Shown: positions 23,301-61,068 of the stretch, piece by piece
Position numbering within the stretch: position 1 is the first letter of the stretch
Layout of the letters: each line of letters starts with the position of its first letter
DNA from: Eggerthellaceae bacterium UBA5808
GTDB taxonomy: Bacteria; Actinomycetota; Coriobacteriia; Coriobacteriales; Eggerthellaceae
DNA: 64,000 nt
Assembly (NCBI GenBank): GCA_002417975.1
Contig: DIDE01000061.1
Location: forward strand, 828-64,827
Reading direction: 5' to 3'
Notes under the pieces: model-generated
The model's input: only the letters and a program-made list of their open reading frames with translations
Database searches by the model: none
What the model was told of the DNA's origin: nothing
Program-made: the position numbers and the translations under genes

Positions 23301-23402
23301 GGGTATGGCCGTATTTTTCTTCGTTCGATGCCAAGCCATACGATCAAAGTGTTGCCAACTGCAGAAATTGTAGCAGCGCTGAGTGAGCAGATAGGTAAGT
23401 AG
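20379..23402 (+). CDS. dinG: DinG-family ATP-dependent helicase fused to an N-terminal DEDDh 3'-5' exonuclease domain
   Basis: Exonuclease motifs IIDTETTG, AHNAAFD and THRADADVEA. Helicase motif I EAGTGVGKS and motif II VVDEAHGAED. Four-Cys stretch YPCLRR...CMRNKCPFFGEKCF. The start is uncertain. Confidence 0.85.
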   Translation: MIVWFYRIRDGNILSDTIDTCIQESTPERIRKRYRSLKDAAAQHDYGELDESVVIIDTETTGVSFHHDELTQIAAARMEHGSIVEWFVTFVNPGKPIPEDITHLTNISNDDVVDAPSPDEAINKLCEFVGTSDLVAHNAAFDKHFVTRHEAGEPLRSNVWIDSLDLTRIALPHLKSHRLIDLVHAFDAPVSTHRADADVEALATVYRILLAAVDAMPDDLVTHIASMADVSDWPTVKVFKHFATDDARPFSLRVLRRSVASAAFGGNHVDANDIVTQLKFPADDEISDAFSSEGIMGKIYPNYEERSAQKVMARSVIHVFKQSKNLAVEAGTGVGKSMAYLIPAVMTAHRNHISIGVATKTNALLDQLVNTELPALSREIEGITYTSLKGITHYPCLRRIEQFVEDGPKERTVNGQIVQQAPALAALLSFIEQSDYDDIDSLKMDYRAIPRYFITTKSTDCMRNKCPFFGEKCFVHGVRQRAEHADIVVTNQSMLFCNVAAEGGLLPPIRYWVVDEAHGAEDEARRAFSYTLDADDMQRLATKVASSDGHRNIFMRAERQATGRKDMDKKTARESIGEQAYESADGSGMSDGDVVLFTLTGKARRAGEAYQTALDAFTPHIHELLKLDTSRRSKGYDNIDLWLSTPMRSEQIFLDLVSTAHDLADTIEELIKHGQNIVEFLEGIEGAARTQREIASVTMNLRDMLASIEVILFEAPTTFAYAAHLTRRNRGSEYLQAIMINVGDEMNKTLYAQTQSIVFTSATMTIADSFDTFTQSMGLGQSEYSESVCTQLESCYDYDGHMTIYVASDMPDPQSANYLQSLERLLIGIHRAQEGSTLTLFTNRREMEKSFSVVQPALRENDLRVVCQKWGVSIKGLRDDFLSDEHLSLFALKSFWEGFDAPGATLKTVVIPKLPFGKPTDPLSCERMQNDARAWMHYVLPAAVLETKQAAGRVIRGADDTGSLVLADHRLVTKGYGRIFLRSMPSHTIKVLPTAEIVAALSEQIGK

Positions 23403-23679
23403 TAACGAGAGAAGTTACACGTTTAGAAACTTTTATGTAAGTGTATGACGATAGCCAATGTGCAAAGGTAGAGGTGTTAGGTAAGGTACAAAATAGGCTG
23501 AAATAGTACCGATAGACAATCGTGCACATGAATACGTATCTACAACATGCGGAAGATGATGGGTGCTTACGTGATTATTTGGGACGACATGCTAAATAGC
23601 GTATACTTACCAATATGTATGTAGTCCCGAAAAATCGGGTGTGAAAAGATATAAAACGTGTAAGGTGAAAGGCGTTCAT

Positions 23680-35628: not shown

Positions 35629-35934
35629 ATGAGGTACTGTCGAACATGCAATAAGTTAGCGATATTGGTTTTTATAACAATCCTCGTATTCGGTGCTATC
35701 CAGCTAATAGGTACTAATAGTGCATATGCAGATACAGCTGGAGCGGTATCTTGCCACGTTGATTCAAAAAGAGCTCCCGTCGGGAAGGTAACTGTTGATT
35801 ACGATGCGCCATCGGGAACATTAACATTTTCTGGCTCTGGAACAGTTGGTGGGTTAAGAAATAGATTTTACACTGATCAGCTACCTGATTCAGTAAATGC
35901 AGAGAAGATATTAGTTGACGTTAAAAAATTGTGA
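35629..35934 (+). CDS. Signal-peptide-bearing N-terminal fragment of the LRR surface protein (frame-disrupted at an A6 tract)
   Basis: MRYCRTCNKLAILVFITILVFGAIQLIGTNSAYA is a signal peptide. The ORF ends at TGA 35932-35934, immediately after AAAAAA at 35923-35928. Confidence 0.6.
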   Translation: MRYCRTCNKLAILVFITILVFGAIQLIGTNSAYADTAGAVSCHVDSKRAPVGKVTVDYDAPSGTLTFSGSGTVGGLRNRFYTDQLPDSVNAEKILVDVKKL

Positions 35935-38900
35935 TACAACAAGGCGTAACAGTAAAAGATCCGTATTTTAGTAAATCTATTACAATGTATGGCGCAATGT
36001 TCTCAAATTTAAAGAGCATTGTTGTAGAAGATGGTGCTGTTGTCAAAGATAAGAAACTAAAAGAGTATATAGCAAATTTATCTGATTCAAATGTTACCGA
36101 TGAGCAGGGTATAACGTATAAAGATTCTACAAAGTCAAAAGTGATTTCGGTGGTGCCAACTGGATCCTCGATTATGCTTCCATCTTCTGTGTCGAGTATT
36201 GCACCTGATGCTTTTACTCAATGCACAGATTCTTTAATCTCGATAAGGGTTTCTGAAAATAATAGTAATTATAAATCTGTAGATGGAGCTCTCTTTAATA
36301 GCGACGGATCATTAGTATATATCCCGCTAGGAATACAAGGCTCTCTTAACTTACCAGAAGGTCTTACGACAATTAAAGCTGAAGATTTACAAAAGCGTTC
36401 AGGGCTAACGGCTTTAACACTTCCATCTAGCTTAACATCTATCGTATGCCATGGTTCCGATGCTGGTGATCTTCCCTTTTACCAAGATAGTAGTTTAAGC
36501 AATATTACCGTAGCAAGCACTAATACAGTGTACTCAGCAGCCGATGGGGTTTTGTATGAAGCAGGAACAGCTGGAACAAAGGTTCTTGATGCTGTACAAA
36601 ATTTACCGAGTGTTGTAGAGGTTCCTGAGGGGGTTACCGATTTAGGCATATGGGTATTCTCTGGTAAAAAAGGGCTTACCAGTATTACATTGCCTGCGTC
36701 TTTGACTAGTCTAAGCCAAGATGCTTTGTATGGGTGCGATCAACTTACCTCTATTAAGTTTCCAGATACTATAAAGAGTATCGCTCTTAAAGGTTGTTCA
36801 GGACTTACATCCTTAGATATTCCCGACGGTGTTACGAGCTTATCAATTTACGATTGTCCAGCGCTCACATCCCTAGATATTCCTGCGAGTGTTGCAAGCA
36901 TTCCTACTTTAGATCATTGTGCGGCGTTGAAATCGATTACCGTTGCAGATGGTGGGCATTTCCGTTTCGATGATGGAGTGCTTTATGACTCAAAAGATAA
37001 TATTATTTTTGAGACAAAATATCCTAATGGACGTGATTATGTCATATTTCCCAAAGGGACGACTACTGCGACGCTTGACGCGAATAAATGTGCTAAAGGG
37101 GATTTCTACGGTAATTCTTTTGCAGCATGCTATAGCACTTTAACAACAATCGTAAGTAATAATCCAGATTACGTTGTAGTGGATGGTGTCCTTTTTTCTT
37201 CCGATATGAAACAGTTGATTAAGGCGCCAACAACATTAACGGGTACCTATATAGTTCCTGACAGTGTTACAAGTATTGCTGCGTTTGCATTTGCAGGATG
37301 CACAAAAGTAAATGCCATTGTGATGCCAAATGCTGGTATAAAAAATATTGGAGCCCGTGCCTTTAGCCAAGTATCCCTAAAATCAGTTCAACTTCCATCA
37401 ACATTATGGCAAGGTAAAAAAGCAACAGATTTTATTGCAGATGCGGCACAGTCATGTATCTATCCTTTATTCTCTATGGCGGATGCTACCTATATATCGC
37501 TTCCTTCAGCAAATGATACTTCTAGTCCAAAAGTGAATCACACACTTGCTGCACTGGATTTTTCGTTATACACGCAAACGTTTTTGCCCAATTATATGTT
37601 TTCGGGGCTGTATGGATTAACGGAAATTTCTCTGCCAAAGAACATTATGTCTATCGGTAATGGCACATTCTTTGCTTGTCCTAATTTGAAGAACGTTTAT
37701 GCATTTAATCAGAACTTGCAGATAGCGACGGCGGGAGAAACGGGCGATCCAACCTTGGGTTGGGTTTCGAGCACACCATCAAGTTTCTCAGCGTTAAACT
37801 CGAAGAATCTGGGAGAGTATGCAACAAATACTGGCATGACGTTCTACGGATTGAATTACACAACAAATACGACCAAAACGTATGCGGATAAATATGGGTG
37901 CACCTTTAAGCCGTTTGCTTTCTTGGGTAATTACAGCGATTCGGCAAAATTGGCTCAAAAGGTCGAAGGCGGAACATCGACGCTCAACTATTTGACGTCT
38001 AGCAACACGGCTTCGATTGCAAGTATGACCTACACGGGTTCAGAATTAACGCCAACCATCACTGTAGATTATGCTGCATCGTCTGATCCAGCTGTTGCGC
38101 AACGAACACTATCACCAGGCAACGACTGCACGGTTGTATATAAAGATTCAGCAGGCAATGCTGTATCAAAAATCGTCAATCCTGGTACATATACCGCTAC
38201 GATAACGGGCGATGAAAAGAGCGTATTTGGCACCACGACCGCAAGCTTTACGGTTGTTGGACCTGCTGGCACCAGTGTAAAGATGAACGATGTATCTGGT
38301 ACGGGCATCACAGCAAATGGATCCTTATGGGGCTCTAATGTTGATAGGAAAGATGCTTCGAACATTCAGCTCGTGGTTGATCCTGTAACATCTGGCGATG
38401 CTTACAATAAGCTGGCAAAAACGCTAGGCGATGGTGACCTGTTGGGAATGTACAACATATTCCTAATGGTTAACGGTACAGAAGTTCATGATAACTTTGG
38501 AACGCTTACACTTTCGTTCCCCGTTGACAGTACGTACAACGGACGCACGGTTACTATCCAGCACCTGCATAAAGACGGATCGGTTACCTCACAACAATCT
38601 GTGGTTGCAAACGGAAAAGTAAAGATTGTCGCGAGCGATTTGTCCGATTTCTCCCTTGAGGTTATGCCGGCATCGGCATCAACAACACCACAAGCAGCTG
38701 GTAAGGGTTCGGGTTCAACGACAACAGCGTCAGGCCAAACTGCTGGTCAGCAATTAGCCCAAACCGCCGCTCAGCAAGCGCAACAAACTCCGCAAACTGC
38801 ACAAACAGTAGCTCAAGGTGCAGGTACGACAACGCAGCCAGCAGCGGCTACGTCGCAAAAGTCGAACGTTAAAACGGGCGATGTTGCTAGTACGTTCCTG

Positions 38901-39002
38901 TGGACACTCGTTCTCTTGTGTGCGGGATCTGCAGCTGCGGCAGTTGGATCGTCGCGCCGTCGTAAGGCTCATGTGGTTAATGAATTACATGTGCTGAAAT
39001 AA
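35931..39002 (+). CDS. BspA-type leucine-rich-repeat cell-surface protein, main body (no signal peptide of its own)
   Basis: Repeated ~22-aa LRR_5-like units (LTSITLPASLTSL, LTSLDIPDGVTSL, LTSLDIPASVASI). The C-terminus has NVKTGD, a hydrophobic segment and RRRK, which looks like a cell-wall sorting signal. Confidence 0.75.
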   Translation: MIQQGVTVKDPYFSKSITMYGAMFSNLKSIVVEDGAVVKDKKLKEYIANLSDSNVTDEQGITYKDSTKSKVISVVPTGSSIMLPSSVSSIAPDAFTQCTDSLISIRVSENNSNYKSVDGALFNSDGSLVYIPLGIQGSLNLPEGLTTIKAEDLQKRSGLTALTLPSSLTSIVCHGSDAGDLPFYQDSSLSNITVASTNTVYSAADGVLYEAGTAGTKVLDAVQNLPSVVEVPEGVTDLGIWVFSGKKGLTSITLPASLTSLSQDALYGCDQLTSIKFPDTIKSIALKGCSGLTSLDIPDGVTSLSIYDCPALTSLDIPASVASIPTLDHCAALKSITVADGGHFRFDDGVLYDSKDNIIFETKYPNGRDYVIFPKGTTTATLDANKCAKGDFYGNSFAACYSTLTTIVSNNPDYVVVDGVLFSSDMKQLIKAPTTLTGTYIVPDSVTSIAAFAFAGCTKVNAIVMPNAGIKNIGARAFSQVSLKSVQLPSTLWQGKKATDFIADAAQSCIYPLFSMADATYISLPSANDTSSPKVNHTLAALDFSLYTQTFLPNYMFSGLYGLTEISLPKNIMSIGNGTFFACPNLKNVYAFNQNLQIATAGETGDPTLGWVSSTPSSFSALNSKNLGEYATNTGMTFYGLNYTTNTTKTYADKYGCTFKPFAFLGNYSDSAKLAQKVEGGTSTLNYLTSSNTASIASMTYTGSELTPTITVDYAASSDPAVAQRTLSPGNDCTVVYKDSAGNAVSKIVNPGTYTATITGDEKSVFGTTTASFTVVGPAGTSVKMNDVSGTGITANGSLWGSNVDRKDASNIQLVVDPVTSGDAYNKLAKTLGDGDLLGMYNIFLMVNGTEVHDNFGTLTLSFPVDSTYNGRTVTIQHLHKDGSVTSQQSVVANGKVKIVASDLSDFSLEVMPASASTTPQAAGKGSGSTTTASGQTAGQQLAQTAAQQAQQTPQTAQTVAQGAGTTTQPAAATSQKSNVKTGDVASTFLWTLVLLCAGSAAAAVGSSRRRKAHVVNELHVLK

Positions 39003-45557: not shown

Positions 45558-46288
45558 TTGATATTCGTAATGTGACCAAGCGCTATGGCAAGTTCACCGC
45601 AATTCATGACATTAGTCTTAAAGCTGATGATTCCAGCGTGTATGGTTTGGTTGGATACAACGGGGCGGGCAAGACAACCTTACTTAAAACCGTTGCAGGA
45701 GTATATTTACCCGACGAAGGCGAAGTACTTGTGGACGGAACGAGTGCACATGTCGGGCGTACACCCGAGAGAACACCGTTTATTGTGGCTGATGAACCGT
45801 TCTTTTTGCCGCAAGCAACGCCGGATTCTATGCGCAGCTTTTATGCGGGATATTATCCTGATTGGTCGGATGCTACCTACGAGAATCTTATGAAACTGTT
45901 TGGGCTTGATAGGCGTGCGCGCATATCGGGATATTCAAAAGGAATGCAGCGCCAGACGGCTATATTGCTTGGTTTGTCGACCGGCGCAAAGTCGTTGTTG
46001 CTGGATGAAAGTTTTGATGGACTCGATTTATCCAAGCGTATTTTACTCAAACGGTTGCTGCGTAAATATGCAGAAGTACGCGGTGCCGCGGTGATTTTGT
46101 CATCGCATAATCTGCGCGAATTAGAAGATGTGGCCGATCGCATCGGTATGATCGAAGATCGGCAATTGGTTTTTGACGAGACCGTCGATGATCTTCATGC
46201 AAACAATCCAGGTCGCACGCTCGAGCAAATATTCCTCGACGAAAGAGAGGTGGGCGACCTTGACATCGACTCGATTTTCATCTGGTAA
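45554..46288 (+). CDS. ABC transporter ATP-binding protein (ABC-2 type)
   Basis: Walker A GYNGAGKTTLL, signature YSKGMQRQ and Walker B LLLDESFDGLD. ATGA overlap with the upstream stop. Confidence 0.9.
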   Translation: MIDIRNVTKRYGKFTAIHDISLKADDSSVYGLVGYNGAGKTTLLKTVAGVYLPDEGEVLVDGTSAHVGRTPERTPFIVADEPFFLPQATPDSMRSFYAGYYPDWSDATYENLMKLFGLDRRARISGYSKGMQRQTAILLGLSTGAKSLLLDESFDGLDLSKRILLKRLLRKYAEVRGAAVILSSHNLRELEDVADRIGMIEDRQLVFDETVDDLHANNPGRTLEQIFLDEREVGDLDIDSIFIW

Positions 46289-48803
46289 ACGTAAGCGCGG
46301 TGGGCTTTCGAAGCCGCAAGATATAGAAGCAGAAGAAGAGCTTTGCGAACAAGATGCTACTACGGCGAAAGAGGAGAAGCCTGCTGCTGCGTCAGGGACT
46401 GCACGTAAAAGCGGATCGCCGGTTGCGTCTGTTACAAATAAGAAATCTGTCTCTAGCTTAAGCGGTAAGACTTCCAAGAAAGCTGCCGCAAAACTAACCA
46501 AGACTTCCAAGAAACTTACCAGTGTTCCCAAGGCGGTGCAGCCCGCACCTCGGCGTAAAGGGACGCGTAGCAATTCATCGCTTACAAGGCACGATTTTGG
46601 TGTGGCGTTTCGCATGGTGCTGCCTGTACTGATTGCAGCGTTGGCTGTGTTTATCGTCTTAATGCCGGTATCCACTGCAGCTATTCCTGATACGTCAGTT
46701 TTTAACTTGGACTATACACACGACCAGCTTAAATGGCGTTTTTGGGCGACCGATATGTTATATCCGGTTTACGCTTGTACAGTGTTGTTCGGCATAGTAC
46801 TTGGTGTACGTAGTTTTAGCTTCCTGTTGGTAAAATGCCAGACGACAACCTTTTTAAGTTTGCCACTTAGTCGCCTAACACTTTTTTCAACGCGTGCTGC
46901 TGCATGTTTACTGTCGTTGATCGTTGGCATTGGTGTGCCATTGGCGATTTCGCTGGCGGTAAATGTTGCAGCGCTGGGTGTGTGGCCAGGAATCTTTGGT
47001 GATTTTTTCTATGTGTTCGCTGGGCTCGTACTAACGGGCGCGGTGGCTTGCATCGCAAGTATTTTGTGCTGCACGTTGGCGGGTACCGTAGTGGAAGCAT
47101 GCGCATTTACGATAGCGTTACTTGGAGTAGTGAGCGTCGGCGCTTGGGGATTAAATGCGCTGATGGATTACTTGCTCGTAGGCAATGCATTTGGAGAATT
47201 TTTATACAACGGCACTACCTCAGTTGCGCCAACGCTTTTGGAATCGACCGAATCGTTTAATCCGCTGCTGTTCTTCTTGGGACAGGCGTCTGCCCATTCG
47301 ACCTTTATGGTTCAGCATCCCGTGTATTATCCAACGGATGGTAATTGGGCGTTCCTTGGTGCGTGGCTGCTCGTTTTGCTCGTGGTTGCAGCGCTGAGTG
47401 CGTATGCGCTTATTCGTCGCAAAGGCGAACGTGCAGGTGTTGCGGGGCTGTGCATACCCATGACTTTTTTGGTGGGGCTGGTTGTAGGATTGGCAGCATT
47501 TGGTGCTACGTTTACCGCGTTAGCGCAGGTAAATGTCGTTGCCGCATGTGTGGCTGCCTTCGGAGCATTTTTGGTAGTGTCGGCGATTTTATTCCGCGGG
47601 CCACTTAAAGGTGTGACGCATCTGCGTACAACGCTTGGTGTAATGGGCGCAGAAGCGTGTTGCTTGGGTGCAGCGGTAGCTATTGTAGCAACGGGTGGAT
47701 TGGGCTATAGCTCGTATGTTCCCAATGATGATCAAGTTGCTTCTGTAGATGTGAGCTATGCGGGATCTCCTGACTATTTAGCGGTAAAGTTTGATTCTGC
47801 CTCGTCGGGGGCTGGATCGTACTACTATTCTGCGACGTATTCGCTTGACGATGCGACAAGCATTCATACAGTAACGGACGTCCATGGGCAGTTGGTACGT
47901 ACGGGAAAAGCTACGTGGAAACGTGACGCTAAAGATTTTGGCAACACCGTGGTTCCTTACGACGTTAAGATTAGCTACACCATGAAAGATGGATCGCAGG
48001 CAGTGCGCTACTTTGATTGCGCCACCTACGACGAACTCTATGCGTTAACGGGTTTGGATGACTCCAGCACCGTTAAAGAACTTGAGCGTGCGAGCGTGTC
48101 GAGCGATATAAGTAATGTAACGAGCGATCAGGCTTCGGCGTTGAACTATTCCAGCGCTCATCAGGCGTATCTTAATGGCACCGTATACTTGAGCGACCCA
48201 TATTATGCATCGTCAGTTAAGTTGTCATGTACGGCCGAGGCGCGGACGCAGTTATTGGCGGCGTTGGCCGAAGATGCGGCGAACCAAACGCGCGAAGATC
48301 GCTATCACCCATCGGGTGTTGCACGTGGCGTACTCATGTTTACGCAGGCAGGGGATACGGATGCACAGAGTTTTTCGTATTCGCTCTCGAACAATGTGAT
48401 CTATTTGACTGATCAATACACGCATACGCTCAAATGGATGGAAGACAATGGCGTTGCAAAGTATTTGTCGTCTGCTGATTCTTCGGTCATCGAAAGTCTG
48501 ACTTTCCAGCGCTACGATCCCTATTCGGGTATGAATGCGGTGAAGTCGCCCGAGAGTGTGCTATTTAAGGGATACCGGATGTCCAACAATTCTCACTATA
48601 TTGTTACGCAAGATTTCGGGACCAAATATTCTACGAACGATGCAAGCGAACTTGCCCAAATTGTGCCGCACTTGCGCAACACATACTTTATGAACACGGG
48701 CGGATATTTGGTGTGTGCAAAATTGGGCGGCGTGAATTCGTATGCGTACTTTTTCTTGCCTGACACTGATGTGCCTGAGTGGCTGTTGCGTGTGGCTGGA
48801 TAG
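46173..48803 (+). CDS. Large polytopic membrane protein with a Lys-rich N-terminal tail and a ~380-aa C-terminal extracytoplasmic domain (putative ABC-2 partner)
   Basis: 876-aa ORF with about 10 TM segments in the middle. The start is uncertain: candidates are ATG 46173/46188/46197 or TTG 46260, which has a GAGAGG RBS. Each candidate overlaps the upstream ATPase gene. Confidence 0.65.
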   Translation: MTRPSMIFMQTIQVARSSKYSSTKERWATLTSTRFSSGKRKRGGLSKPQDIEAEEELCEQDATTAKEEKPAAASGTARKSGSPVASVTNKKSVSSLSGKTSKKAAAKLTKTSKKLTSVPKAVQPAPRRKGTRSNSSLTRHDFGVAFRMVLPVLIAALAVFIVLMPVSTAAIPDTSVFNLDYTHDQLKWRFWATDMLYPVYACTVLFGIVLGVRSFSFLLVKCQTTTFLSLPLSRLTLFSTRAAACLLSLIVGIGVPLAISLAVNVAALGVWPGIFGDFFYVFAGLVLTGAVACIASILCCTLAGTVVEACAFTIALLGVVSVGAWGLNALMDYLLVGNAFGEFLYNGTTSVAPTLLESTESFNPLLFFLGQASAHSTFMVQHPVYYPTDGNWAFLGAWLLVLLVVAALSAYALIRRKGERAGVAGLCIPMTFLVGLVVGLAAFGATFTALAQVNVVAACVAAFGAFLVVSAILFRGPLKGVTHLRTTLGVMGAEACCLGAAVAIVATGGLGYSSYVPNDDQVASVDVSYAGSPDYLAVKFDSASSGAGSYYYSATYSLDDATSIHTVTDVHGQLVRTGKATWKRDAKDFGNTVVPYDVKISYTMKDGSQAVRYFDCATYDELYALTGLDDSSTVKELERASVSSDISNVTSDQASALNYSSAHQAYLNGTVYLSDPYYASSVKLSCTAEARTQLLAALAEDAANQTREDRYHPSGVARGVLMFTQAGDTDAQSFSYSLSNNVIYLTDQYTHTLKWMEDNGVAKYLSSADSSVIESLTFQRYDPYSGMNAVKSPESVLFKGYRMSNNSHYIVTQDFGTKYSTNDASELAQIVPHLRNTYFMNTGGYLVCAKLGGVNSYAYFFLPDTDVPEWLLRVAG

Positions 48804-48812
48804 AGGCAGACG

Positions 48813-49799
48813 ATGATTATAGACGAGAACATGAGTATAGATGCACGTGACAGCGTATGTGACAGCGTATGTGACAACGTAGGGAAAAGCCGTTGTCGGT
48901 TGGCTGGCGTTTGCATTGTGATCGCGGTTGCACTGTGTGTCTTGTGCAGCACGCTGTGCTGCGCGGGGTGCGGCGTTGCGACAGGAAAAGTGAGCGACGC
49001 GTCCCCTACCTGCGTTGATGCGCAGGTTACAAGTGGAAGCGATCTAACGGAGTCGGGTCAGTATGCAGAGGTCCGTTTAAAATTTGATGCACCAGTGAGC
49101 GCGGACAATGATGTGTCGAGTGATTTTACGGTAAGGCTTAACGATGCGCCGATTGATACAAAAACTATTGTTGAGTCAGCGCGCGTTGATAACGGAGACG
49201 TGGTAGTTCGTTTGCAGCCGAGCGATGCTGCTTCGGGTAAAGATTCGTCCGTATATTTTGCGCTCTATCAGGGGCAGCTTTCCGTTTGTGCATCCGACGC
49301 ATCGGGTGCGTTGCCTCATGTGCTAGCTGCTAACGGTGAGCAAGGGTCGAGTGCGGTATGTGCGCGCATGAATCAGCGCGTGAGCTTTACGGTTCCATCA
49401 GGTGTAGCAATTTCGGTGGTAGAACGTGTTCCTGGCGATGCGGCGAGTGGAACGTGCGCATGTACGGTGTGCAAGGTCGACCAATTTGCTCAGTTGCGTT
49501 GTGTTATGTGGTTGGGATTATCAACGAATGGTGATGTGCCGTGTAATGAATATGGTATGGCGGATTATGGTGCCGACGACATGGAAAATGGCACGCTGAC
49601 GTTTAAACATAACCATTTATTTATGCGTGATACACAACGTGAATGTGCAACTGACCTGGCTCAAGTTATTCAAAATGCATGGCCGGATACGGTAACCGCA
49701 ACATCTTCGGGAGATACGATCACGCTGACGGCAACGCATGCGGTGGATGGCGAAGTGCTAATGCCCGTTATATTCGAAGGGCGGTATGCCGATGAATAA
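48813..49799 (+). CDS. Putative lipoprotein/secreted protein, function unknown
   Basis: Hydrophobic signal ending LCCAGCG (lipobox-like). No recognised domain. The 3' end overlaps the FecCD permease start. Confidence 0.6.
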   Translation: MIIDENMSIDARDSVCDSVCDNVGKSRCRLAGVCIVIAVALCVLCSTLCCAGCGVATGKVSDASPTCVDAQVTSGSDLTESGQYAEVRLKFDAPVSADNDVSSDFTVRLNDAPIDTKTIVESARVDNGDVVVRLQPSDAASGKDSSVYFALYQGQLSVCASDASGALPHVLAANGEQGSSAVCARMNQRVSFTVPSGVAISVVERVPGDAASGTCACTVCKVDQFAQLRCVMWLGLSTNGDVPCNEYGMADYGADDMENGTLTFKHNHLFMRDTQRECATDLAQVIQNAWPDTVTATSSGDTITLTATHAVDGEVLMPVIFEGRYADE

Positions 49800-53020: not shown

Positions 53021-54067
53021 TTAGTCGTTTAGCTTTTTCGCTAAAGAATGAAGTTTGTTTCTATTAGTTGGAAGCCAATTTGAATAAACGAAAATAATTG
53101 CATCTTTCTCAGTGATTTTCTGATACTTTTGTTTTTCTAATCCTTTAGGTGGTTGTTTACGTAGAAGCGGATGGTCTATGCCTAACCTTTTCTGAGACCA
53201 CTGCGTATTGAATAAACATTTAGTATCAATTGTCGAATTAATGAGTTGCCTAATGTCGCTATGATCGTTACAGGTGAATCTATTAGTGTATTTGTTACTA
53301 TTGGTATTTTTATTTTCCGCTGAATTGGATGAATGATTTATTTCATCATCGTTCTTAACTGCGCAGGGAAGTATAGTGCCAAGGACGGAATCTAGGCAAT
53401 TTGACGAAGGTGTAAGAACACCAACTCCTGAATTATATTGTTGCGGGTGTTCGGTTGCCCATATTGAGCGTTCAACTGTTTGGCAGTACTGTTCTGTTTC
53501 CCTGCCGCAAAAGAGCCACACGGATTTTATTTGTTCGTCTGGATTTAACGCTGCAATGTCAGATTTATATTTAAGAATCGACTCTCCTAATCTTCCCTGT
53601 GGAAACCTTCTGCATAGCGAGTCCCCTCTACTGAACTTTGCATCGAAAATAAAATTATGTTTTGTGCCCAGCGCATCGCGGACTGATAAAAGATAATCAG
53701 GAGTCCAATACGATGGCTTGTGATACTGAATACTTTTTTGAGAAGCAGATAAGCGATGAAGTGCGATATCATATTCTTCTGTTTCGTCACCGTAAATAAC
53801 CGGTTGATAATAGAGACACACATGTGTGTTCTTCGAACATAAATGGTAAACCGTGGCAACTTGGTCTTCATTTTTAAAATATGGATTCTTAAGGCTGTAA
53901 TGTGCTTTTATGATTGGCTGTTTGTAGCGCATGTCCTCATGAAAATCATGTAGATTAAGCCATAATAGCAATTTGTAGAGTACATAGTATTCATAGAGTT
54001 TATCGGTTCTAAATAGATGCAACGATAAGTTTTCATTTTCGAGCGTGGAATCACCAAAAAAATCCAA
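53021..54067 (-). CDS. McrC-like nuclease, C-terminal fragment (PD-(D/E)xK core); frame-disrupted
   Basis: KLYEYYVLYKLL then YWTPDYLL...HNFIFDAKFS (D...DxK nuclease motif). The ORF-track start is a TTG with no RBS. Overlaps the upstream fragment out of frame by 160 nt. Confidence 0.65.
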   Translation of the reverse strand: MDFFGDSTLENENLSLHLFRTDKLYEYYVLYKLLLWLNLHDFHEDMRYKQPIIKAHYSLKNPYFKNEDQVATVYHLCSKNTHVCLYYQPVIYGDETEEYDIALHRLSASQKSIQYHKPSYWTPDYLLSVRDALGTKHNFIFDAKFSRGDSLCRRFPQGRLGESILKYKSDIAALNPDEQIKSVWLFCGRETEQYCQTVERSIWATEHPQQYNSGVGVLTPSSNCLDSVLGTILPCAVKNDDEINHSSNSAENKNTNSNKYTNRFTCNDHSDIRQLINSTIDTKCLFNTQWSQKRLGIDHPLLRKQPPKGLEKQKYQKITEKDAIIFVYSNWLPTNRNKLHSLAKKLND

Positions 54068-55308
54068 CGTTGCATAAGTTTAAAAAATACAGAGTACGCC
54101 TCAATTTCCTGAAAAACCTTTGAGTATTGGAGGGGCGCTGTAAAAGTAGGCTTAACGTTTGGTAATGCCTGACTATAGATTCGGTTTATTGCTTGAATAC
54201 GTTTTAGTAATGGCTTAATTCGGTTGATGAAGGAAATATCTCTATCTTTATATTGAGTAATTACAGTTAAAGAGGGTAGGAAAAAACCAGGTTGGATTTT
54301 GCCCGATAAATCATTTTCAATTGTTTGGAGCGAAGTAATTGCTCCTTCCAATGAGTTACGTAGCGTATTAGTTTTTCGTAAGACGGCTTGTATAAATCCA
54401 AGAATCAATCGGTTCTCATACGTATTAAAACTCTTAGCATTTTGGTTCGTCTTAATATATCTTGGCATATAGAAATTGTTTTGGTATTGTATCCCAGTTT
54501 TTGATTGCGTCTTTTCAAGAATATTTTCATTTTTAAGAAGCCATAATTGTTCTTTACAACCAAGCTTATGAACTTGATGGGGGGAAAGGCGAATTGGATG
54601 CTTAACGATACGACAATATCGATGTGCTCTAAAAGCAGTAATATTTTCCTCATAGGTTGATGCTATTTTTTCGATGAGCTGTATAAGGGAAAGCATAGAT
54701 TTTGGAGCATTTTTATTTAATGACCCTTCCAGGATTGAATACTGCTCGGAATTGCTTGTGCCTTGAGTAAACATCCAATTTAGTACAGTTCTGTTGCCGA
54801 TATCTAAGAGTTCTTCTAGCATCTGAGTAATAAATTGGTGTTGCTCAGGCGTTTGACTTTGGCATGGGATATCCTGTGTTGTAAAAATGAATGGAGAGTC
54901 AGCAGAAGATTGAAATGTAACGCTAACTTGAATTCTGGCAAATCCATAAATAAGCGTGAATAATCTATCTTTGTATTTATCTATACAGAACGATGTTTTA
55001 TAGAAAGGCTCTTTAGATGAATTCTTGACAGTTTGTTGTGCTTTAAGACTTATCTCATCAGAACCATTTACGCTTAGTTTACATTCAATGATTGGCGAGT
55101 TGGACTGAAAGAGCAAGGCAATACCGTACTGATAATTCTCCGACACAATTCCTTCGGTTGATGGAGAAATGTAATCAGGAAATGAAGAGTAGTCGTATAA
55201 AGAAAAATTTTGGGTACTCTTTTCAGAAGGACTAGTAAGTTGGATAATTCCTCTACGTTTTGATCTAAACGAAGTATTGGTAGAATCCATCGTTTTGTCC
55301 ATAATCAA
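53908..55308 (-). CDS. McrC-like protein, N-terminal (DUF2357-like) fragment; meaningful only down to ~54057
   Basis: 466-aa ORF whose start overlaps the stop of the AAA+ gene. The last ~49 aa after RWIF are Cys/Tyr/Met-rich out-of-frame-looking sequence. The frame switch coincides with A7 at 54056-54062 (T7 on the coding strand). Confidence 0.6.
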   Translation of the reverse strand: MIMDKTMDSTNTSFRSKRRGIIQLTSPSEKSTQNFSLYDYSSFPDYISPSTEGIVSENYQYGIALLFQSNSPIIECKLSVNGSDEISLKAQQTVKNSSKEPFYKTSFCIDKYKDRLFTLIYGFARIQVSVTFQSSADSPFIFTTQDIPCQSQTPEQHQFITQMLEELLDIGNRTVLNWMFTQGTSNSEQYSILEGSLNKNAPKSMLSLIQLIEKIASTYEENITAFRAHRYCRIVKHPIRLSPHQVHKLGCKEQLWLLKNENILEKTQSKTGIQYQNNFYMPRYIKTNQNAKSFNTYENRLILGFIQAVLRKTNTLRNSLEGAITSLQTIENDLSGKIQPGFFLPSLTVITQYKDRDISFINRIKPLLKRIQAINRIYSQALPNVKPTFTAPLQYSKVFQEIEAYSVFFKLMQRWIFLVIPRSKMKTYRCIYLEPINSMNTMYSTNCYYGLIYMIFMRTCATNSQS

Positions 55309-57883
55309 TCATACGGCTAAGTCGTTTTTGGGTTATTTCCATTGATGAACAATTATCTTTCAATTCTTCTAAGAGTTTTTCGATGTGCTCGTTAGCTCCT
55401 GAGATCATTGGAAGCACTTTTTGCGAAAAAGCGTAGTCAAGCGGTGCAAGCCCAGTATCTTTAGAGTCAATGTCCATAAGTTGTACAGCTGTAGAGATGT
55501 AATCTTTCATCATTAATTGACTACGTGGCGATACTGGAAAATGATTTGAATTGCAAATATTTAAAAGATTAGAAAATTGTAGATAAATATCGGAAGGAAT
55601 TTTGTTTGTATCATTGTATCCAAAAATTTTTGTTAAGCGATTATACGAATAGGTATGAAATGGCTTGTTATCGGAGTGAGCGTCGTATAAGTTCTCACTA
55701 AAATCAAGTCGGGCTGGATCAAGCGTAATGACCCAACTCCGATCTAAAAATCTTTGTGATAAAAGTTCAGTTGTATGGTCGAAATTAACTGTTGCTAAAA
55801 ATCTTACATAGGACGGTAGATGCCATGTGCTATTGCCACCGAGAGGGATAGAAACTCCGTGGGAAGCGAAAGAGTCACATGCGTGCAGAAATGGTGACCA
55901 ATAGTGTTCTATTGGGCTTAGATTTGCTTCATCAAGAAGGAAAATATACGGAGGAATTGCATTAAGTTGGTCGTCCTCGTTTGCGAGAGCGTGCATCGCA
56001 TCAAAAACGGTTGAATTTACCTTTTCGTATGTAGTGGTAAGAGGGCTATAGTAGCCAATATAGTCTTTATACGATGTCCAACCATTTTCGACATCTATTT
56101 CAGTAAAACGTGAAACTGGATCGTCTTCACTATACAGACCGAGGGCTTTAGCGAGGATATTGCATAAACTTGTTTTCCCTGTTCCAGGCTGTCCTGCAAA
56201 TGTTGTTATATAACCCTGCGTTAAACAGATCATGAAATTAATTATGTCATTACGCGTATAATCTCTCCCGGCGGTTTCGATTATTGCATCGCTAAGAGAC
56301 GTAATAACATCATTATCAGAAAGAGAACTTTCGTCTTGATCAGTTCTACGAAGAAGATTAATTGTTTGGGGAATTGTATCTTTGACTTTTGTGCCAGAAA
56401 CAGCATCAACAACTTTGTTCAGCAGTTTACTTTCAAGGAGTTTACTTGACATAGCTACATCATCATTAATACTATCTATAGTTTTGTTAATATTGGTTTC
56501 TAGATCTTTTTCCTTGTTTGAAAGATTTTCGTAGTCTTTAGCAGCGTTGTTAAGCTCTTTCTTTCTTTGCTCGATCTCCTGATCTAGTTTTTTAAGCTCG
56601 TCGTTCTTTTTGCTAAGTGCTTGATCCTGAATTTCACCAAACTGTTCTTCCGCTCTTTTTTTCTCCACTTGAGCGGTACTAATATCATTATTAATACGGG
56701 CTAGTGTATAGCGTGCTTCTTTTTGTTGATTCTCTAATGCGTCTAGGGATGCTTGTAGTTTTTGTTTCTCTTGCTCGACTTGCGCTCGCATTTGATCTTG
56801 AATAGTGCTGCTGTTAACCAATGCCTGCTTAATAGGAGAATCTGTTTGCGCAAGTATGCGCTTAATATCTTCAGGTTTTATCGAACTTGCAACAGTATCT
56901 AAGATATTCTTTGGTATTTTTGGAAACTTTTCTACGTTGGAAATAATCGATTCAAGACGATCTATTCGTGATGCATCAAAGTTGATCTGGTTTGTTGGGT
57001 CGGCATAGTTTCGTAATGTCTGCTTTAGATTCTTTTTTTGGCTTTTGCTAAGTTTTGTGATGCTCGTTGACTCATTAATTATACGACTAATGTATTCAAG
57101 TAATTTTGTATCGGGAAGCCAGTCGAGGCTATTACCAGAATCAAATAAAGGTTTTAAGCAAGTTTCATCAATGAATCTTGCGCGGATAGTATGATTTTTG
57201 TCTCTTAGCGGTAGGACATCTTTAATTTGCTCTGCATCGATTTTCAAGACATGGTAATCGTTTGATTCAATTGCACTAATGGTAATAGTGTTGTTGTCAG
57301 TCGAATGAGTGCTATAGATGAATGGACCATAATAAACCGGGTTATTAAAGGAGTCAGTTCGTTCAATTAAAATTGCTCGGCAAATAAGATTTTCTATTGG
57401 ACTCTTAATAGGCAGAGGCTCTTTAATCGGATGCAAAAATGATACATCGTTATTTTCGAGAGACACTATTTGAATAAGCTCATGTGAATATGGATGTTTT
57501 GAAAAAGAGGTAAATTCTAGGTCTGATGTACCCTTCGAAAGAAGGGGATTAATCCTGAAACGATATTTTGAAGACAGCTCAACAGATGGTTCGTAATAAT
57601 CATTGTGATCTAGATAATTTTTATTGATCTTTGCGATAACTATAGGCGTGTATTTCATTGCTATTTCATCTAATGGTATGTTTCCTAAAATAACGCCTTG
57701 AAAACATCCTGCATTTGGAAAAATATCACTTTGGATTGGATGCCATCCAGATTGATCTTTGAGAAATTGAGGGTATACATAGCATGATTGACCAGTGACA
57801 GGGTATTCAACCCATGAAAGCAAATCAGAACCTAGACATTGTTCTGCCTCATCAACGGAGTCCATTAATAATCCCCAATTCAT
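55265..57883 (-). CDS. McrB-family AAA+ NTPase with an unrecognised N-terminal domain and a central coiled-coil
   Basis: 872 aa with Walker A GQPGTGKTS and Walker B IFLLDEANLS. ATVNFDHTTELLSQRFLDRS resembles the McrB TMNxxD...RRF segment. About 140 aa of heptad-like charged sequence (EQEKQKLQASLDALENQQKEA...EIEQRKKELNNAAKDYENL). Confidence 0.7.
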   Translation of the reverse strand: MNWGLLMDSVDEAEQCLGSDLLSWVEYPVTGQSCYVYPQFLKDQSGWHPIQSDIFPNAGCFQGVILGNIPLDEIAMKYTPIVIAKINKNYLDHNDYYEPSVELSSKYRFRINPLLSKGTSDLEFTSFSKHPYSHELIQIVSLENNDVSFLHPIKEPLPIKSPIENLICRAILIERTDSFNNPVYYGPFIYSTHSTDNNTITISAIESNDYHVLKIDAEQIKDVLPLRDKNHTIRARFIDETCLKPLFDSGNSLDWLPDTKLLEYISRIINESTSITKLSKSQKKNLKQTLRNYADPTNQINFDASRIDRLESIISNVEKFPKIPKNILDTVASSIKPEDIKRILAQTDSPIKQALVNSSTIQDQMRAQVEQEKQKLQASLDALENQQKEARYTLARINNDISTAQVEKKRAEEQFGEIQDQALSKKNDELKKLDQEIEQRKKELNNAAKDYENLSNKEKDLETNINKTIDSINDDVAMSSKLLESKLLNKVVDAVSGTKVKDTIPQTINLLRRTDQDESSLSDNDVITSLSDAIIETAGRDYTRNDIINFMICLTQGYITTFAGQPGTGKTSLCNILAKALGLYSEDDPVSRFTEIDVENGWTSYKDYIGYYSPLTTTYEKVNSTVFDAMHALANEDDQLNAIPPYIFLLDEANLSPIEHYWSPFLHACDSFASHGVSIPLGGNSTWHLPSYVRFLATVNFDHTTELLSQRFLDRSWVITLDPARLDFSENLYDAHSDNKPFHTYSYNRLTKIFGYNDTNKIPSDIYLQFSNLLNICNSNHFPVSPRSQLMMKDYISTAVQLMDIDSKDTGLAPLDYAFSQKVLPMISGANEHIEKLLEELKDNCSSMEITQKRLSRMIDYGQNDGFYQYFV

Positions 57884-58158
57884 ATTAGTAAAGCTAATTA
57901 AGCATGAATCATATTATGTAGCGTATATATAACATGTCTGAGTATAGTCCAAGAAAAAGATTTAGAGAGAAATTAGCTAACGGTAGCTATGAAGTAAATA
58001 AAATATTTTGCCTAGCTGGGAATTAAATGGTTCTGAGTCCCATTTATGGGACTCATATAAGAATAATAATGGCTATACTTGTCCTTTATAAGGGGAGGGA
58101 AGAACATCAAGCCTGTTTTAGCGGGTCAACAATATTGGCTTATGATGCACTGATTGAT

Positions 58159-61068
58159 ATGTCAAAAAAAGTCCACAACAATGTAAAACAGAGTCAGTTA
58201 AGCACGGATAAGTGCGCCCCTTTTCTTTGGGCAAAAACAGATGGTGACAATTACGGAGCATTTTCACCTCTTTATGTTCACATGAGCGATACAGGCGAAG
58301 TTGCGCGACTTCTTTGGGAGGCGTGGATCCCTGAATCAATACAACAAATGCTAACGTCAATGACCGGTTCAGGTGTAGCGAGTGAATCATTGGTTATATG
58401 GATGGCAATGGTTCATGATATTGGTAAAGCAACACCTGCTTTTCAGTATAAAGTTCCGGTATTTGCTGAGCATGTAAAAGAACAAGGGCTTGATACCCTT
58501 GATGATCCTAAATATGTATCGCATGCATTTATGGGACAAGTTATTTTGAACGACTGGCTTATGTCTATAGGTTGGGAATACGGCAATACTTATGCAACAG
58601 TTGTTGGAGGACATCATGGGGCACCGCCGACGATACCAGAACTAAATGAAATTACGCACAACATAGATACATATTTGGGCGATGACTGTTGGAAGCGAAT
58701 AAGAAGTGATCTTTTACAGTATGCCTATAACTATTCAGGTATCGATCGTTTTCAGACAACGCTGTCGCATATTCCATTGTCGTCTTGCTTGCAGGTATTG
58801 CTAACTGGATTAGTAATTATGTCTGATTGGATTGCGTCAGACTCCGAGTATTTTCCTTGTACTGATAATGTATCAAATTATGCAAATTGTCAGATCAAAA
58901 AAACTGATTTTAAAAACCGTGCGGGCAGAGCATGGAAGTTTTTAAATCTTTCGGATGCATGGCATCCCGTTTGCGTTAAAGAAACTAATGATGAATTATT
59001 CTATCATCGATTTGCGATTACCTCATCTCCATATTCAGCTCAATGCGAGGCGCTTAATCTTGCTCGAAATATCAAAAAACCAGGATTAATGATTATTGAG
59101 GCCCCTATGGGCAGTGGGAAGACCGAAACATCCTTGTTGTGTGCAGAGATATTCGCCTCAAAGTATCATGAGGGAGGAATCGCATATTTTTTACCAACAA
59201 TGGCAACATCAAATGCAATGTTTACGCGTATAGAAAATTGGCTAAAGCATGTTCCTGATGCGCGAGGAAATAAACAGCAACAAACAGTATGCCTTGCTCA
59301 TAGTAAATCGAGATTAAATAAAGAATATGCATCTTTAAAGTCAGAAAAAAAGACGTCAGGAGCGAATAACTTCACTAGGACCTCAACGGCGTTAGATGAC
59401 ACCGCGCAACTCGAGGATATTATTGCGAATCCATGGCTCTGTGGTCGTAAACGGTGGCTATTATCCTCGTTTGTTGTTGGAACAGTTGATCAGCTGCTTA
59501 TGGCGGCATTAAAAACGAGGCATGTTCAACTGCGACATTTAGGGCTAGCTGGAAAAGTTGTTGTTGTTGATGAAGTTCATGCGTACGATGCATACATGAG
59601 CGTATATCTTGATCGTATTCTTGCATGGCTTGGGACCTACAATGTTCCTACGATAATGCTATCGGCTACACTTCCATCTTCCCGTCGCGATCAGTTAATG
59701 CGCGCGTATAGGGGAAGCACAGGACGAACTCGCAGCGCTGACCGTATTCAAGTATCTCCCTGCATGAACCCAAAAAGTCTAGTGTATCCACTTGTAAGCT
59801 ATTGTTCGGCTGATAGAGACGAAGCGCCTATGTATCGTAGATGCGAGAATAGTGGGCGCGTGCAACAAGTGATGATTGAGTATCTTGCTGATGATGATGA
59901 AACGCTCGTAAAGATGCTCAAAAATAGTATGTCAGATGGTGGTTGCGTTTGCGTGCTTCGGGACACTGTGAAACGAGCTCAGCAAACGTATGAGTTGCTA
60001 GTAAAAACAATGAATATTCCAATCAAACTGGTTCATTCGCGTTTTATATCTATTGATCGAGTAGCAAACGATAAAGAACTTCTAGATATGTTTGGGCCTG
60101 ATAGTGAATGTCGACCGAAATCTTACATTGTTGTTGGGACTCAGGTTATTGAACAATCCTTGGATATTGATTTTGATTTGTTAATAACAGACATTGCCCC
60201 AGTGGACCTTCTGCTTCAGCGTATAGGTCGACTTCATAGGTGCCTACGTGGCGCAAATCAAAGTGATCGTCCTGTCAAGATGCAAAAACCTTGTTGCTAT
60301 ATTACAGGAATTACTGATTGGAATGCGTCGCCTCCAACTATTGTTAAGGAAATTAAAAAGATATATCAACCTGCAATAATCTGGGAAACATTAGCTGCAT
60401 TAGGTGAACAAAACAAGTGTAAGAGATTTATATCACTTCCAGATGATATTGCGCCATTAGTCGACTGTGTTTATGAAGACAAATGTGCGATTCCTAAATC
60501 GTGGGAGGCGGATGTTTTTAAGGCTAAAAAGACGATGAAAAATGAACGCTTTAAAAAGGAAAATAAAGCAAAAACATGGCTTCTTGATAAACCACGTCCT
60601 GAAGGCAAAGATCTTACTAATTGGTTTCAGCAGGCATTTAGCATAGATGATGAGCAAGGAGCTCGGGCTACGGTACGTGATACTCAGCCGTCAATCGAAG
60701 TGGTTCTCGTACAAGAGGCTGAAGGTGAAATTCAACTACTTCCTTGGGTTGAGCCTGAAAAGGAACAACGCTCATTAGGAAATGGGATGGTTGTACCTGA
60801 TGACGACATGGCAAAAATAGCGGCTTCTTGTACAGTTTGTTTACCTCCTAGGCTATGTCTATGCGGCATTGCTGATCAAGTTATTGCTTATCTAGAGAAG
60901 CAATATGCATTGCCTGGATGGCAGGAATCAGCTTGGTTGAAAGGGGCGCTTCCGCTTGTGCTAGACATGGATTGTAAAGCAAAAATCACATGTTCAAATA
61001 GAACATTCATATTGACATATTCAGTAAAAGAGGGGTTAATTTTGGGAAACGAGGATGAAAATGAGTAA
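58159..61068 (+). CDS. cas3: CRISPR-associated helicase/nuclease Cas3 (type I-E)
   Basis: HD domain (LYVHMSDTGEV, MVHDIGKATPAFQ). Helicase motif I EAPMGSGKTE and motif II VVVDEVHAYD. Followed by cse1-cse2-cas7. ATG at 58159 is preferred over the ORF-track extension from 58027. Confidence 0.9.
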   Translation: MSKKVHNNVKQSQLSTDKCAPFLWAKTDGDNYGAFSPLYVHMSDTGEVARLLWEAWIPESIQQMLTSMTGSGVASESLVIWMAMVHDIGKATPAFQYKVPVFAEHVKEQGLDTLDDPKYVSHAFMGQVILNDWLMSIGWEYGNTYATVVGGHHGAPPTIPELNEITHNIDTYLGDDCWKRIRSDLLQYAYNYSGIDRFQTTLSHIPLSSCLQVLLTGLVIMSDWIASDSEYFPCTDNVSNYANCQIKKTDFKNRAGRAWKFLNLSDAWHPVCVKETNDELFYHRFAITSSPYSAQCEALNLARNIKKPGLMIIEAPMGSGKTETSLLCAEIFASKYHEGGIAYFLPTMATSNAMFTRIENWLKHVPDARGNKQQQTVCLAHSKSRLNKEYASLKSEKKTSGANNFTRTSTALDDTAQLEDIIANPWLCGRKRWLLSSFVVGTVDQLLMAALKTRHVQLRHLGLAGKVVVVDEVHAYDAYMSVYLDRILAWLGTYNVPTIMLSATLPSSRRDQLMRAYRGSTGRTRSADRIQVSPCMNPKSLVYPLVSYCSADRDEAPMYRRCENSGRVQQVMIEYLADDDETLVKMLKNSMSDGGCVCVLRDTVKRAQQTYELLVKTMNIPIKLVHSRFISIDRVANDKELLDMFGPDSECRPKSYIVVGTQVIEQSLDIDFDLLITDIAPVDLLLQRIGRLHRCLRGANQSDRPVKMQKPCCYITGITDWNASPPTIVKEIKKIYQPAIIWETLAALGEQNKCKRFISLPDDIAPLVDCVYEDKCAIPKSWEADVFKAKKTMKNERFKKENKAKTWLLDKPRPEGKDLTNWFQQAFSIDDEQGARATVRDTQPSIEVVLVQEAEGEIQLLPWVEPEKEQRSLGNGMVVPDDDMAKIAASCTVCLPPRLCLCGIADQVIAYLEKQYALPGWQESAWLKGALPLVLDMDCKAKITCSNRTFILTYSVKEGLILGNEDENE

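Follow-up and report, generated by a model that had tools for sequence, protein, structure and literature searches.

A probable two-gene CoCoNuT-like restriction module with a disrupted nuclease gene beside the type I-E cas operon of an Eggerthellaceae bacterium

The A-B gene pair and its relatives

Within a 64,000-nucleotide (nt) stretch of the genome of Eggerthellaceae bacterium UBA5808 (assembly GCA_002417975.1, contig DIDE01000061.1, positions 828 to 64,827; hereafter referred to as the window, whose own numbering is used), two overlapping genes on the minus strand lie back-to-back with the cas3 gene of a type I-E cas operon. We refer to them as gene A and gene B (Table 1). A preliminary description of this region, made from the DNA letters alone, had proposed, with the CoCoNuT-type systems as a possible affiliation, that they form a two-gene operon resembling McrBC, in which an 872-amino-acid (aa) nucleoside triphosphatase (NTPase) with an McrB-type core and a charged, heptad-like segment of about 140 aa precedes a nuclease partner whose start overlaps the stop codon of the NTPase gene. 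Our in silico analysis bears out this outline and indicates that A-B is likely to be a self-contained two-gene Type IV restriction-like defense module of the NxD coiled-coil branch of McrBC systems (CoCoNuT, Type I-like). The copy present in the window carries a frameshift in gene B.

The open reading frame (ORF) of gene A spans positions 55265-57883 and encodes the 872 aa originally noted. Since homologs align from M7 onward and a GGGGA Shine-Dalgarno-like box is located upstream of the ATG at 57865, we took this codon as the probable start of an 866-aa protein, to which the residue numbers of A given below refer. The ATG of gene B (55290) falls 26 nt before the stop codon of gene A (55265-55267), and the identical 26-nt overlap is present at homologous loci. 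Full-length homologs of A are 42-44% identical to it, so that the ORFs are not the product of chance. A single residue (N569K) distinguishes the A protein of the window from P0001, a cluster representative derived from ERZ795004; the window is thus probably a sister assembly of this same strain.

The A protein contains the Walker motifs GQPGTGKTS and FLLDEANLS and an NxD signature. Residues G558, G561, G563, K564, T565, D645, E646, N694 and D696 are invariant across 49 homologs; the residue that follows the NxD aspartate in A is H instead of the usual E or D. Residues 346-480, which correspond to the heptad-like segment, consist to 37% of D/E/K/R and to 1% of P/G, possess a strong heptad periodicity, and match the coiled coils of SMC/JetC/LmuB, keratin and myosin. 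Homolog searches were consequently run with A after removal of the coiled coil; the full-length query had returned A alone, with coiled-coil words saturating the candidates. A profile built from 49 A-family members was then compared with reference proteins by hhalign. It matched Type I-A CnuB from Escherichia coli S43 (99.7%, E 2e-26) over a stretch that begins shortly before Walker A and reaches the C-terminal residues, and McrB from E. coli K-12 (94.5%, E 8e-8) from Walker A to the signature motif. The MoxR-family protein RavA, used as a control, scored 2%. The similarity to McrB surfaced only in these hhalign comparisons: a single-sequence search of the PDB with the AAA+ half of A returned P-loop noise alone, and when the A profile was run against the PDB, matches to the Lon P-loop and to coiled coils dominated and McrB was not listed.

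Gene B encodes a DUF2357 domain and a PD-(D/E)xK nuclease core. Of 35 family members, 31 matched the DUF2357 model (best E 1.9e-10) and 27 matched PDDEXK_7 (best E 1.2e-7). Residues D430, E434, P531-D532 and D550-A551-K552 are invariant across 35 homologs, and the nuclease of intact B copies is therefore predicted to be active. About 135 conserved residues precede DUF2357 and could hold an Ig-like domain. No match was obtained when the B profile was searched against PDB sequences.

To define the distribution of the family, HMMER searches were conducted over 1.84 billion representatives; they yielded 723 A-family proteins at E<=1e-30. In the one-genome-per-species GTDB, relatives of A occur at 456 loci, and their main hosts are Coriobacteriia (Collinsella, Eggerthella, Slackia, Adlercreutzia), Oscillospiraceae and other Clostridia, termite-gut Treponema, and Anaerobiospirillum. 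Pairing and module counts were made on 80 loci kept from these 456, and the closest relatives among the 80 listed are 41-43% identical to A. At 75 of them, the next gene after A, on its strand, is a homolog of B. Inspection of 24 other neighborhoods uncovered no third recurring gene beside A-B; the UPF1-like helicase CnuH, the HEPN or other nuclease CnuE and the TerY-P triad are absent from the locus in the window and do not recur in these neighborhoods. The flanking genes vary among genomes and are mostly of the housekeeping type, with occasional occurrences of PglX/type IIG, methyltransferases, AbiEi and MzaA. Eleven relatives of A reside on predicted viral or prophage contigs (IMG/VR, L093-L103). 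Such a distribution is typical of two-gene modules that are mobile and self-sufficient, and the adjacency to cas3 is particular to this genome. The preliminary description had regarded the AT-rich site next to cas genes as support for a defense role. As to the site itself this was correct, with cas3 placed divergently and a GC content of 36% over 54-58 kb versus 49-51% at 40-52 kb, but the cas neighborhood is not conserved in the family. Members of the family have long been present in the NCBI nr database (e.g., WP_028027180.1), where the homologs retrieved are annotated only as 'hypothetical protein' or 'AAA family ATPase'.

Given that the Pfam matches of A are restricted to generic AAA domains, all of them sub-threshold, that its coiled coil resembles those of SMC/JetC/LmuB, and that its flanks are often housekeeping genes, one might view A as a housekeeping AAA+ ATPase of the MoxR/dynein type or as an SMC-like coiled-coil protein unrelated to defense. 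We consider this highly improbable. The hhalign scores for McrB, CnuB and RavA effectively refute it; the SMC-type matches span the coiled coil alone; the family is distributed in a patchy and mobile fashion that includes viral contigs; and A possesses an obligate partner with DUF2357 and PD-(D/E)xK domains in which the PD...DAK residues are invariant. By profile, the AAA+ core thus sides with McrB and CnuB and not with MoxR, and the partner carries a predicted nuclease, contrary to two of the outcomes that would have spoken against the assignment originally made.

Table 1. Features of the A-B locus, in window coordinates
Feature	Position	Strand	Basis or remark
Gene A (cnuB-like)	55265..57865	-	866-aa coiled-coil NxD McrB-type NTPase; ORF extends to upstream ATG 57883 (872 aa)
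N-terminal 'reader', A residues 1-245	57131..57865	-	two beta-rich barrel-like domains (~10-137, ~150-235)
Helical neck, A residues 246-345	56831..57130	-	conserved DW..P, K, R..R positions; lower-confidence model
Coiled coil, A residues 346-480 (~135 aa)	56426..56830	-	composition, heptad score
AAA+ (McrB-type) NTPase core, A residues 531-715	55721..56275	-	motifs and hhalign
Walker A, GQPGTGKTS	56168-56194	-	sequence
Walker B, FLLDEANLS	55916-55942	-	sequence
VNFDHTTE...QRFLDRS	55736-55789	-	NxD signature N694-F-D696 within 55766-55789
C-terminal helical domain, A residues 716-866	55268..55720	-	conserved to terminal GFYQYF; aligns with the C-terminal end of Type I-A CnuB (E. coli)
Gene B (cnuC/mcrC-like), disrupted	53021..55290	-	with T8 in place of T7, would encode 756 aa
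DUF2357 (McrC N-terminal domain), upstream B fragment	54337..54729	-	PF09823, E 6.3e-6, 26 bits vs cut-off 23.3
T7 homopolymer (A7 on + strand), 1-nt deletion site splitting B	54056..54062	-	DNA comparison
PD-(D/E)xK nuclease core	53633..54004	-	PDDEXK_7, E 1e-3 in this locus
Nuclease motif, DKLYEYY helix	53984-54004	-	sequence
Nuclease motif, TPDY	53693-53704	-	sequence
Nuclease motif, FDAKF	53633-53647	-	sequence
N/S-rich low-complexity linker	53285..53353	-	length varies among relatives
Alpha/beta module (~85-87 aa), B C-terminus	53024..53284	-	conserved in relatives
cas3 of type I-E operon	58027..61068	+	divergent neighbor, context only; Cas3_HD 1e-46, PADLOC Cas3e 3e-205

The frameshift in gene B

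The partner of the NTPase had been described as one protein with a DUF2357-like region followed by the nuclease core. Both domains are indeed encoded, but they do not lie in one ORF: B is split into a frame at 53908-55308 (466 aa, DUF2357) and a second one at 53021-54067 (348 aa, PDDEXK_7). Addition of one T to the T7 homopolymer at the junction restores a 756-aa B protein that is collinear with the intact 756-aa homolog P0002 (97% identity; 24 substitutions, none of them at the junction). We found the T7 allele in three sequencing runs (ERZ795004, SRR5325208 and SRR2753158), whose DNA is 100% identical, while the DNA of the P0002 relative, from JGI 3300045594, possesses T8 and an intact gene. 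Since T7 recurs in three independent runs, the frameshift is a property of the strain and not an assembly error, and because it cuts DUF2357 off from the nuclease, it most likely leaves the system of this strain inactive or in decay.

Phase variation is frequent among the restriction genes of bacteria adapted to a host. The deletion in B sits in a homopolymer, both the T7 and the T8 alleles are natural, and the T7 run might thus act as a functional switch, either through slipped-strand T7/T8 phase variation or through a -1 ribosomal or transcriptional slip at U_UUU_UUG that would give some full-length CnuC. The upstream frame reads TGG ATT TTT TTG GTG; its T_TTT_TTG is in formal terms a valid -1 slippery heptamer, and slipping back by one nucleotide yields GGT GAT TCC, the correct downstream frame. 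We nevertheless regard a switch or recoding event as improbable. The three T7 contigs represent identical clones and T8 was found in a different strain (96.9% identical), a comparison that reveals no switching within a population; a run of 7-8 T is short for efficient slippage, no stimulatory RNA structure is predicted downstream (minimum free energy z = +0.64), and family copies elsewhere carry their breaks at positions unrelated to this one, a sign of plain decay. Programmed -1 frameshifting as the principal explanation was rejected, since the heptamer is in phase but the downstream structure is absent. Ordinary decay, or at most crude phase variation, is the better reading of the T7 run than a programmed event.

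Even less probable, in our view, is that B remains functional in two pieces, with a DUF2357 fragment of 460 aa and a nuclease fragment translated on its own. Both fragments are still open, the downstream one offers possible TTG and ATG starts, and the strain with the T7 allele persists in three samples. However, the 303-aa product initiated at the called ATG would lose the conserved DKLYEYY helix with the invariant residues D430 and E434, the upstream frame continues into 50 out-of-frame residues, and B does not occur as two genes at this point in any of the 75 homologous loci.

The T7 deletion in B is not the only lesion observed in the family. Disrupted A-B copies were also found at L053:6001-8575, at L029:8477-9382, and in the cluster of P0142. 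In Ca. Rubneribacter avistercoris, A is split across two frames; the assembly of Collinsella aerofaciens ATCC 25986 contains a B gene truncated after about residue 303; and products split into 723+124 aa and 608+242 aa were found in Logan assemblies. These disrupted copies suggest a recurrent inactivation of the system.

Terminal modules and placement among CoCoNuT systems

The preliminary description had left the N-terminal region of A and the C-terminal region of B unassigned, and both remained so in our searches of Pfam, PDB sequences and, at the level of significant matches, Foldseek. AlphaFold2, supplied with a 26-sequence alignment, modeled residues 1-250 of A with a pLDDT (predicted local distance difference test) score >90. 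Matches of the SRA, EVE/YTH, PUA or McrB-N type were not obtained for this region with Foldseek, Pfam or PDB sequences, and its profile exhibited no similarity to the N-terminus of Type I-A CnuB. Its non-significant Foldseek neighbors are mostly OB-fold proteins (HIN-200, Teb1, CST, RADX, Pot1, AspRS); exosome cap subunits are among them as well, including 5c0w_I, which is the published hit for the Type I-C N-terminus. In distant family members (1000-1400 aa), other unassigned sequence stands in place of the A N-terminus while the coiled coil and the NTPase are kept, as would be expected of a swappable sensor.

At the other end of the system, the N/S-rich linker and the C-terminal module of roughly 90 aa noticed earlier in B proved to be genuine and to be conserved in relatives. 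In the AlphaFold2 model of the module (pLDDT 91.4), three helices are followed by a short strand, a further helix, a hairpin and a closing helix. Foldseek searches of the PDB and BFVD gave no match below E 0.2; an assignment as a winged helix was rejected, since the matches amounted to a faint scatter with TM-scores <0.32. A hidden Markov model (HMM) of the module found it at 22 of the 80 loci, nearly all of them from Coriobacteriia, and nowhere but at the very C-terminus of B, which marks it as an optional, clade-specific accretion. Most B homologs (630-690 aa) end directly after the nuclease. In P0036, P0039 and P0045, B homologs of 1076-1230 aa, a C-terminal extension carrying PF14311 (probable zinc ribbon) replaces the 85-aa module. 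Such replacements indicate that the C-terminus of CnuC-like proteins is a variable accessory position, and it is the position at which Type I-A CnuC carries a zinc ribbon. As a guess, the module of B has a nucleic-acid-binding or regulatory role; it is possibly an undescribed accessory module of this clade.

Where does A-B stand among the known systems? The NxD signature delimits a branch that contains the CoCoNuTs and is set apart from canonical McrB proteins with NxxD (Bell et al., PMC11090510). Like the McrBC system of E. coli K-12, A-B combines an AAA+ core with Walker A and B motifs and a sensor asparagine with a downstream, overlapping partner that carries DUF2357 and a PD-(D/E)xK domain with the D-A-K motif. 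Unlike K-12 McrB, A possesses NxD and not NxxD, and a long coiled coil together with a larger, different N-terminal region takes the place of the small domain that reads 5-methylcytosine; B is twice as long as K-12 McrC and has extra N- and C-terminal domains.

Among the CoCoNuTs, A-B was compared by sequence with Type I-A, for which the E. coli S43 pair WP_040216748.1 / WP_073528071.1 (given by Bell et al., 2024, in Supplementary file 3) served as a reference. The GTPase and the C-terminal helical domain of A are homologous to those of Type I-A CnuB end to end, NxD and an N-terminal coiled coil are shared, both systems are two-gene operons, and the PD...DAK nuclease motifs align. The PADLOC models PDC-M26A and PDC-M26B correspond to Type I-A CnuB and CnuC (1132 and 1404 bits). 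PDC-M26A was the best PADLOC model for A (E 6.5e-28) and matched 49 of 49 A homologs; B gave no match to the PDC-M26B models, and PADLOC v2 would not call the locus. Several features set Type I-A apart from A-B: its CnuB possesses a helical insert of about 90 aa between Walker B and NxD, where A has about 22 residues between the motif flanks, and in its CnuC, DUF2357 is interrupted by coiled-coil/CSD insertions and the C-terminus bears a zinc ribbon, neither of which is found in B. The C-terminal module of B is not Cys-rich, and A-B falls outside Type I-A. In Type I-B, the coiled coil resides in a separate protein, CnuA, and CnuB lacks one, whereas the coiled coil of A is fused to the NTPase. 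Types II and III are associated with CnuH, CnuE or TerY-P; the neighbors of A-B are an iron ABC transporter and cas3. A-B thus falls outside Types I-B, II and III too.

The layout of A-B is closest to that of Type I-C, a comparison made by published architecture. According to the description by Bell, Sahakyan, Makarova, Wolf and Koonin (eLife 2024), Type I-C CnuB has the architecture CSD-YTH-CoCo-McrB and CnuC the architecture IG-McrC_N-PD-DxK. Reference proteins of the type are GFD85286.1, MBV0932852.1, KLN96646.1 and MBO4998275.1 for CnuB, and MBV0932851.1 and KLN96647.1 for CnuC. Shared traits are the presence of only two overlapping genes in the order cnuB then cnuC, an NxD GTPase without a helical insert, a coiled coil directly N-terminal to it with beta-barrels ahead, and a CnuC with DUF2357 and an intact PD-DxK core. 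Differences concern both termini: A gave no YTH/EVE-like match and its two N-terminal domains could not be assigned as CSD then YTH, and B carries a linker and a C-terminal module of about 85 aa that lie outside the published architecture string. The novelty that the preliminary description had sought in the two modules is accordingly limited. Both are unassigned, but the overall architecture is essentially the Type I-C layout already catalogued by Bell et al. (2024). Because members of the family have long been in NCBI nr and the census by Bell et al. was exhaustive, we think that the A-B family on balance already belongs to their Type I-C set. That the Coriobacteriia-centered clade constitutes an undescribed CoCoNuT Type I subtype, defined by a CnuB barrel pair that is neither a recognizable CSD nor YTH and by a new CnuC fold of about 85 aa, is possible but rather doubtful; if true, the new fold would act as a second target-recognition or regulatory domain.

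Several observations weigh against placing A-B among the coiled-coil McrBC defense modules. The pair is mostly found among housekeeping genes and not in defense islands. B is broken in the locus studied here, and copies are broken elsewhere in the family too. Of the HMM checks proposed at the outset, DUF2357 exceeded its cut-off and PDC-M26A detected A, but Pfam AAA_5 remained sub-threshold for A (E 0.08), and its relatives reached 20-21.5 bits at a cut-off of 22. The B family profile exhibited no similarity to E. coli K-12 McrC and only a weak one to Type I-A CnuC (28%, E 6e-4, nuclease region only), although PD and DAK are in register. Foldseek gave nothing significant in the PDB for the A N-terminus (best E 0.02, TM <0.3), and a YTH/EVE-like match is absent from its top 50. 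Finally, no Type I CoCoNuT is known to have been tested experimentally, so that the defense role, the use of GTP and the substrate are proposed by analogy.

If A-B operates in a manner analogous to McrBC, A would form an NTP-driven, probably GTP-driven, hexameric ring, into which DUF2357 of B may insert and thereby stimulate NTP hydrolysis. The N-terminal barrels, which the coiled-coil stalk would carry, probably sense the nucleic acid of an invader, and their ligand may be single-stranded, either RNA or ssDNA. The PD-(D/E)xK domain of B would serve as the only effector nuclease and would most likely cut DNA, less likely RNA, while the C-terminal module on its flexible linker may function as an accessory domain.

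The intact catalytic residues of this sole, McrC-type nuclease, the detectably McrB-like GTPase core, and the lack of a HEPN domain or other RNase nearby would also suit a conventional modification-dependent restriction system of the E. coli McrBC type, in which the N-terminus reads a modified base in double-stranded DNA (dsDNA) of a phage, the ring translocates the DNA, and McrC cuts it, with no role for RNA; the best, although non-significant, structural neighbors of the barrels include the tandem OB domains of HIN-200, which bind dsDNA. We consider this reading unlikely, albeit to be taken seriously. The NTPase of A belongs to the NxD/coiled-coil branch, which is separated from the NxxD McrB proteins and predicted to engage RNA (Bell et al., PMC11090510), the N-terminus lacks similarity to known readers of modified DNA, and no methyltransferase or modification gene is consistently associated with the pair. 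RNA targeting has been proposed for CoCoNuTs generally; experimental support comes so far only from a type II CoCoNuT-like locus, which confers protection from RNA phages and from a single DNA phage (bioRxiv 10.64898/2026.04.06.716636).

A Type I-like CoCoNuT assignment of A-B contradicts nothing in the published picture of these systems; the copy in the window is broken. Type I CoCoNuTs are abundant yet lack experimental study, and the A-B family is widespread in Coriobacteriia of the human and animal gut. Its two-gene make-up and its cultured hosts (Collinsella aerofaciens, Slackia faecicanis, Adlercreutzia mucosicola and Lancefieldella rimae) offer a practical entry point for asking what the McrBC systems of this NxD coiled-coil branch detect and cleave, a question for which the CnuB N-terminal barrels and the clade-specific C-terminal module of CnuC provide concrete handles.

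Genes surrounding the A-B locus

In this genome, A-B is a defense-island neighbor of a type I-E CRISPR system, with its nuclease gene most likely inactivated by the homopolymer deletion. After the divergent cas3 gene come cse1, cse2 and the other genes of the type I-E operon. On the other side, A-B is bordered by genes for an iron ABC transporter with a GC content of about 50%, and the proteins encoded there are at least 90% identical to proteins from metagenome-assembled genomes of Eggerthellaceae. No near match to the region was found in the E. coli genomes searched, and scans of the locus for promoters and terminators returned nothing above the shuffled background.

At the end of the cas operon, on the source contig past the right end of the window (L001:1-800), Pfam hits indicate a Cas2 protein fused to an RNase_T/DnaQ-like (DEDDh) exonuclease. 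Among the ABC-transporter genes, an ORF at 46173-48803 on the plus strand (847-876 aa) has no Pfam family on record, and the same is true for the adjacent ORF at 48813-49799 (328 aa). Farther upstream, the plus-strand regions 20379-27975 and 35931-39002 contain three very long ORFs (1007, 1444 and 1023 aa), and the GC content rises there to 0.50-0.52.

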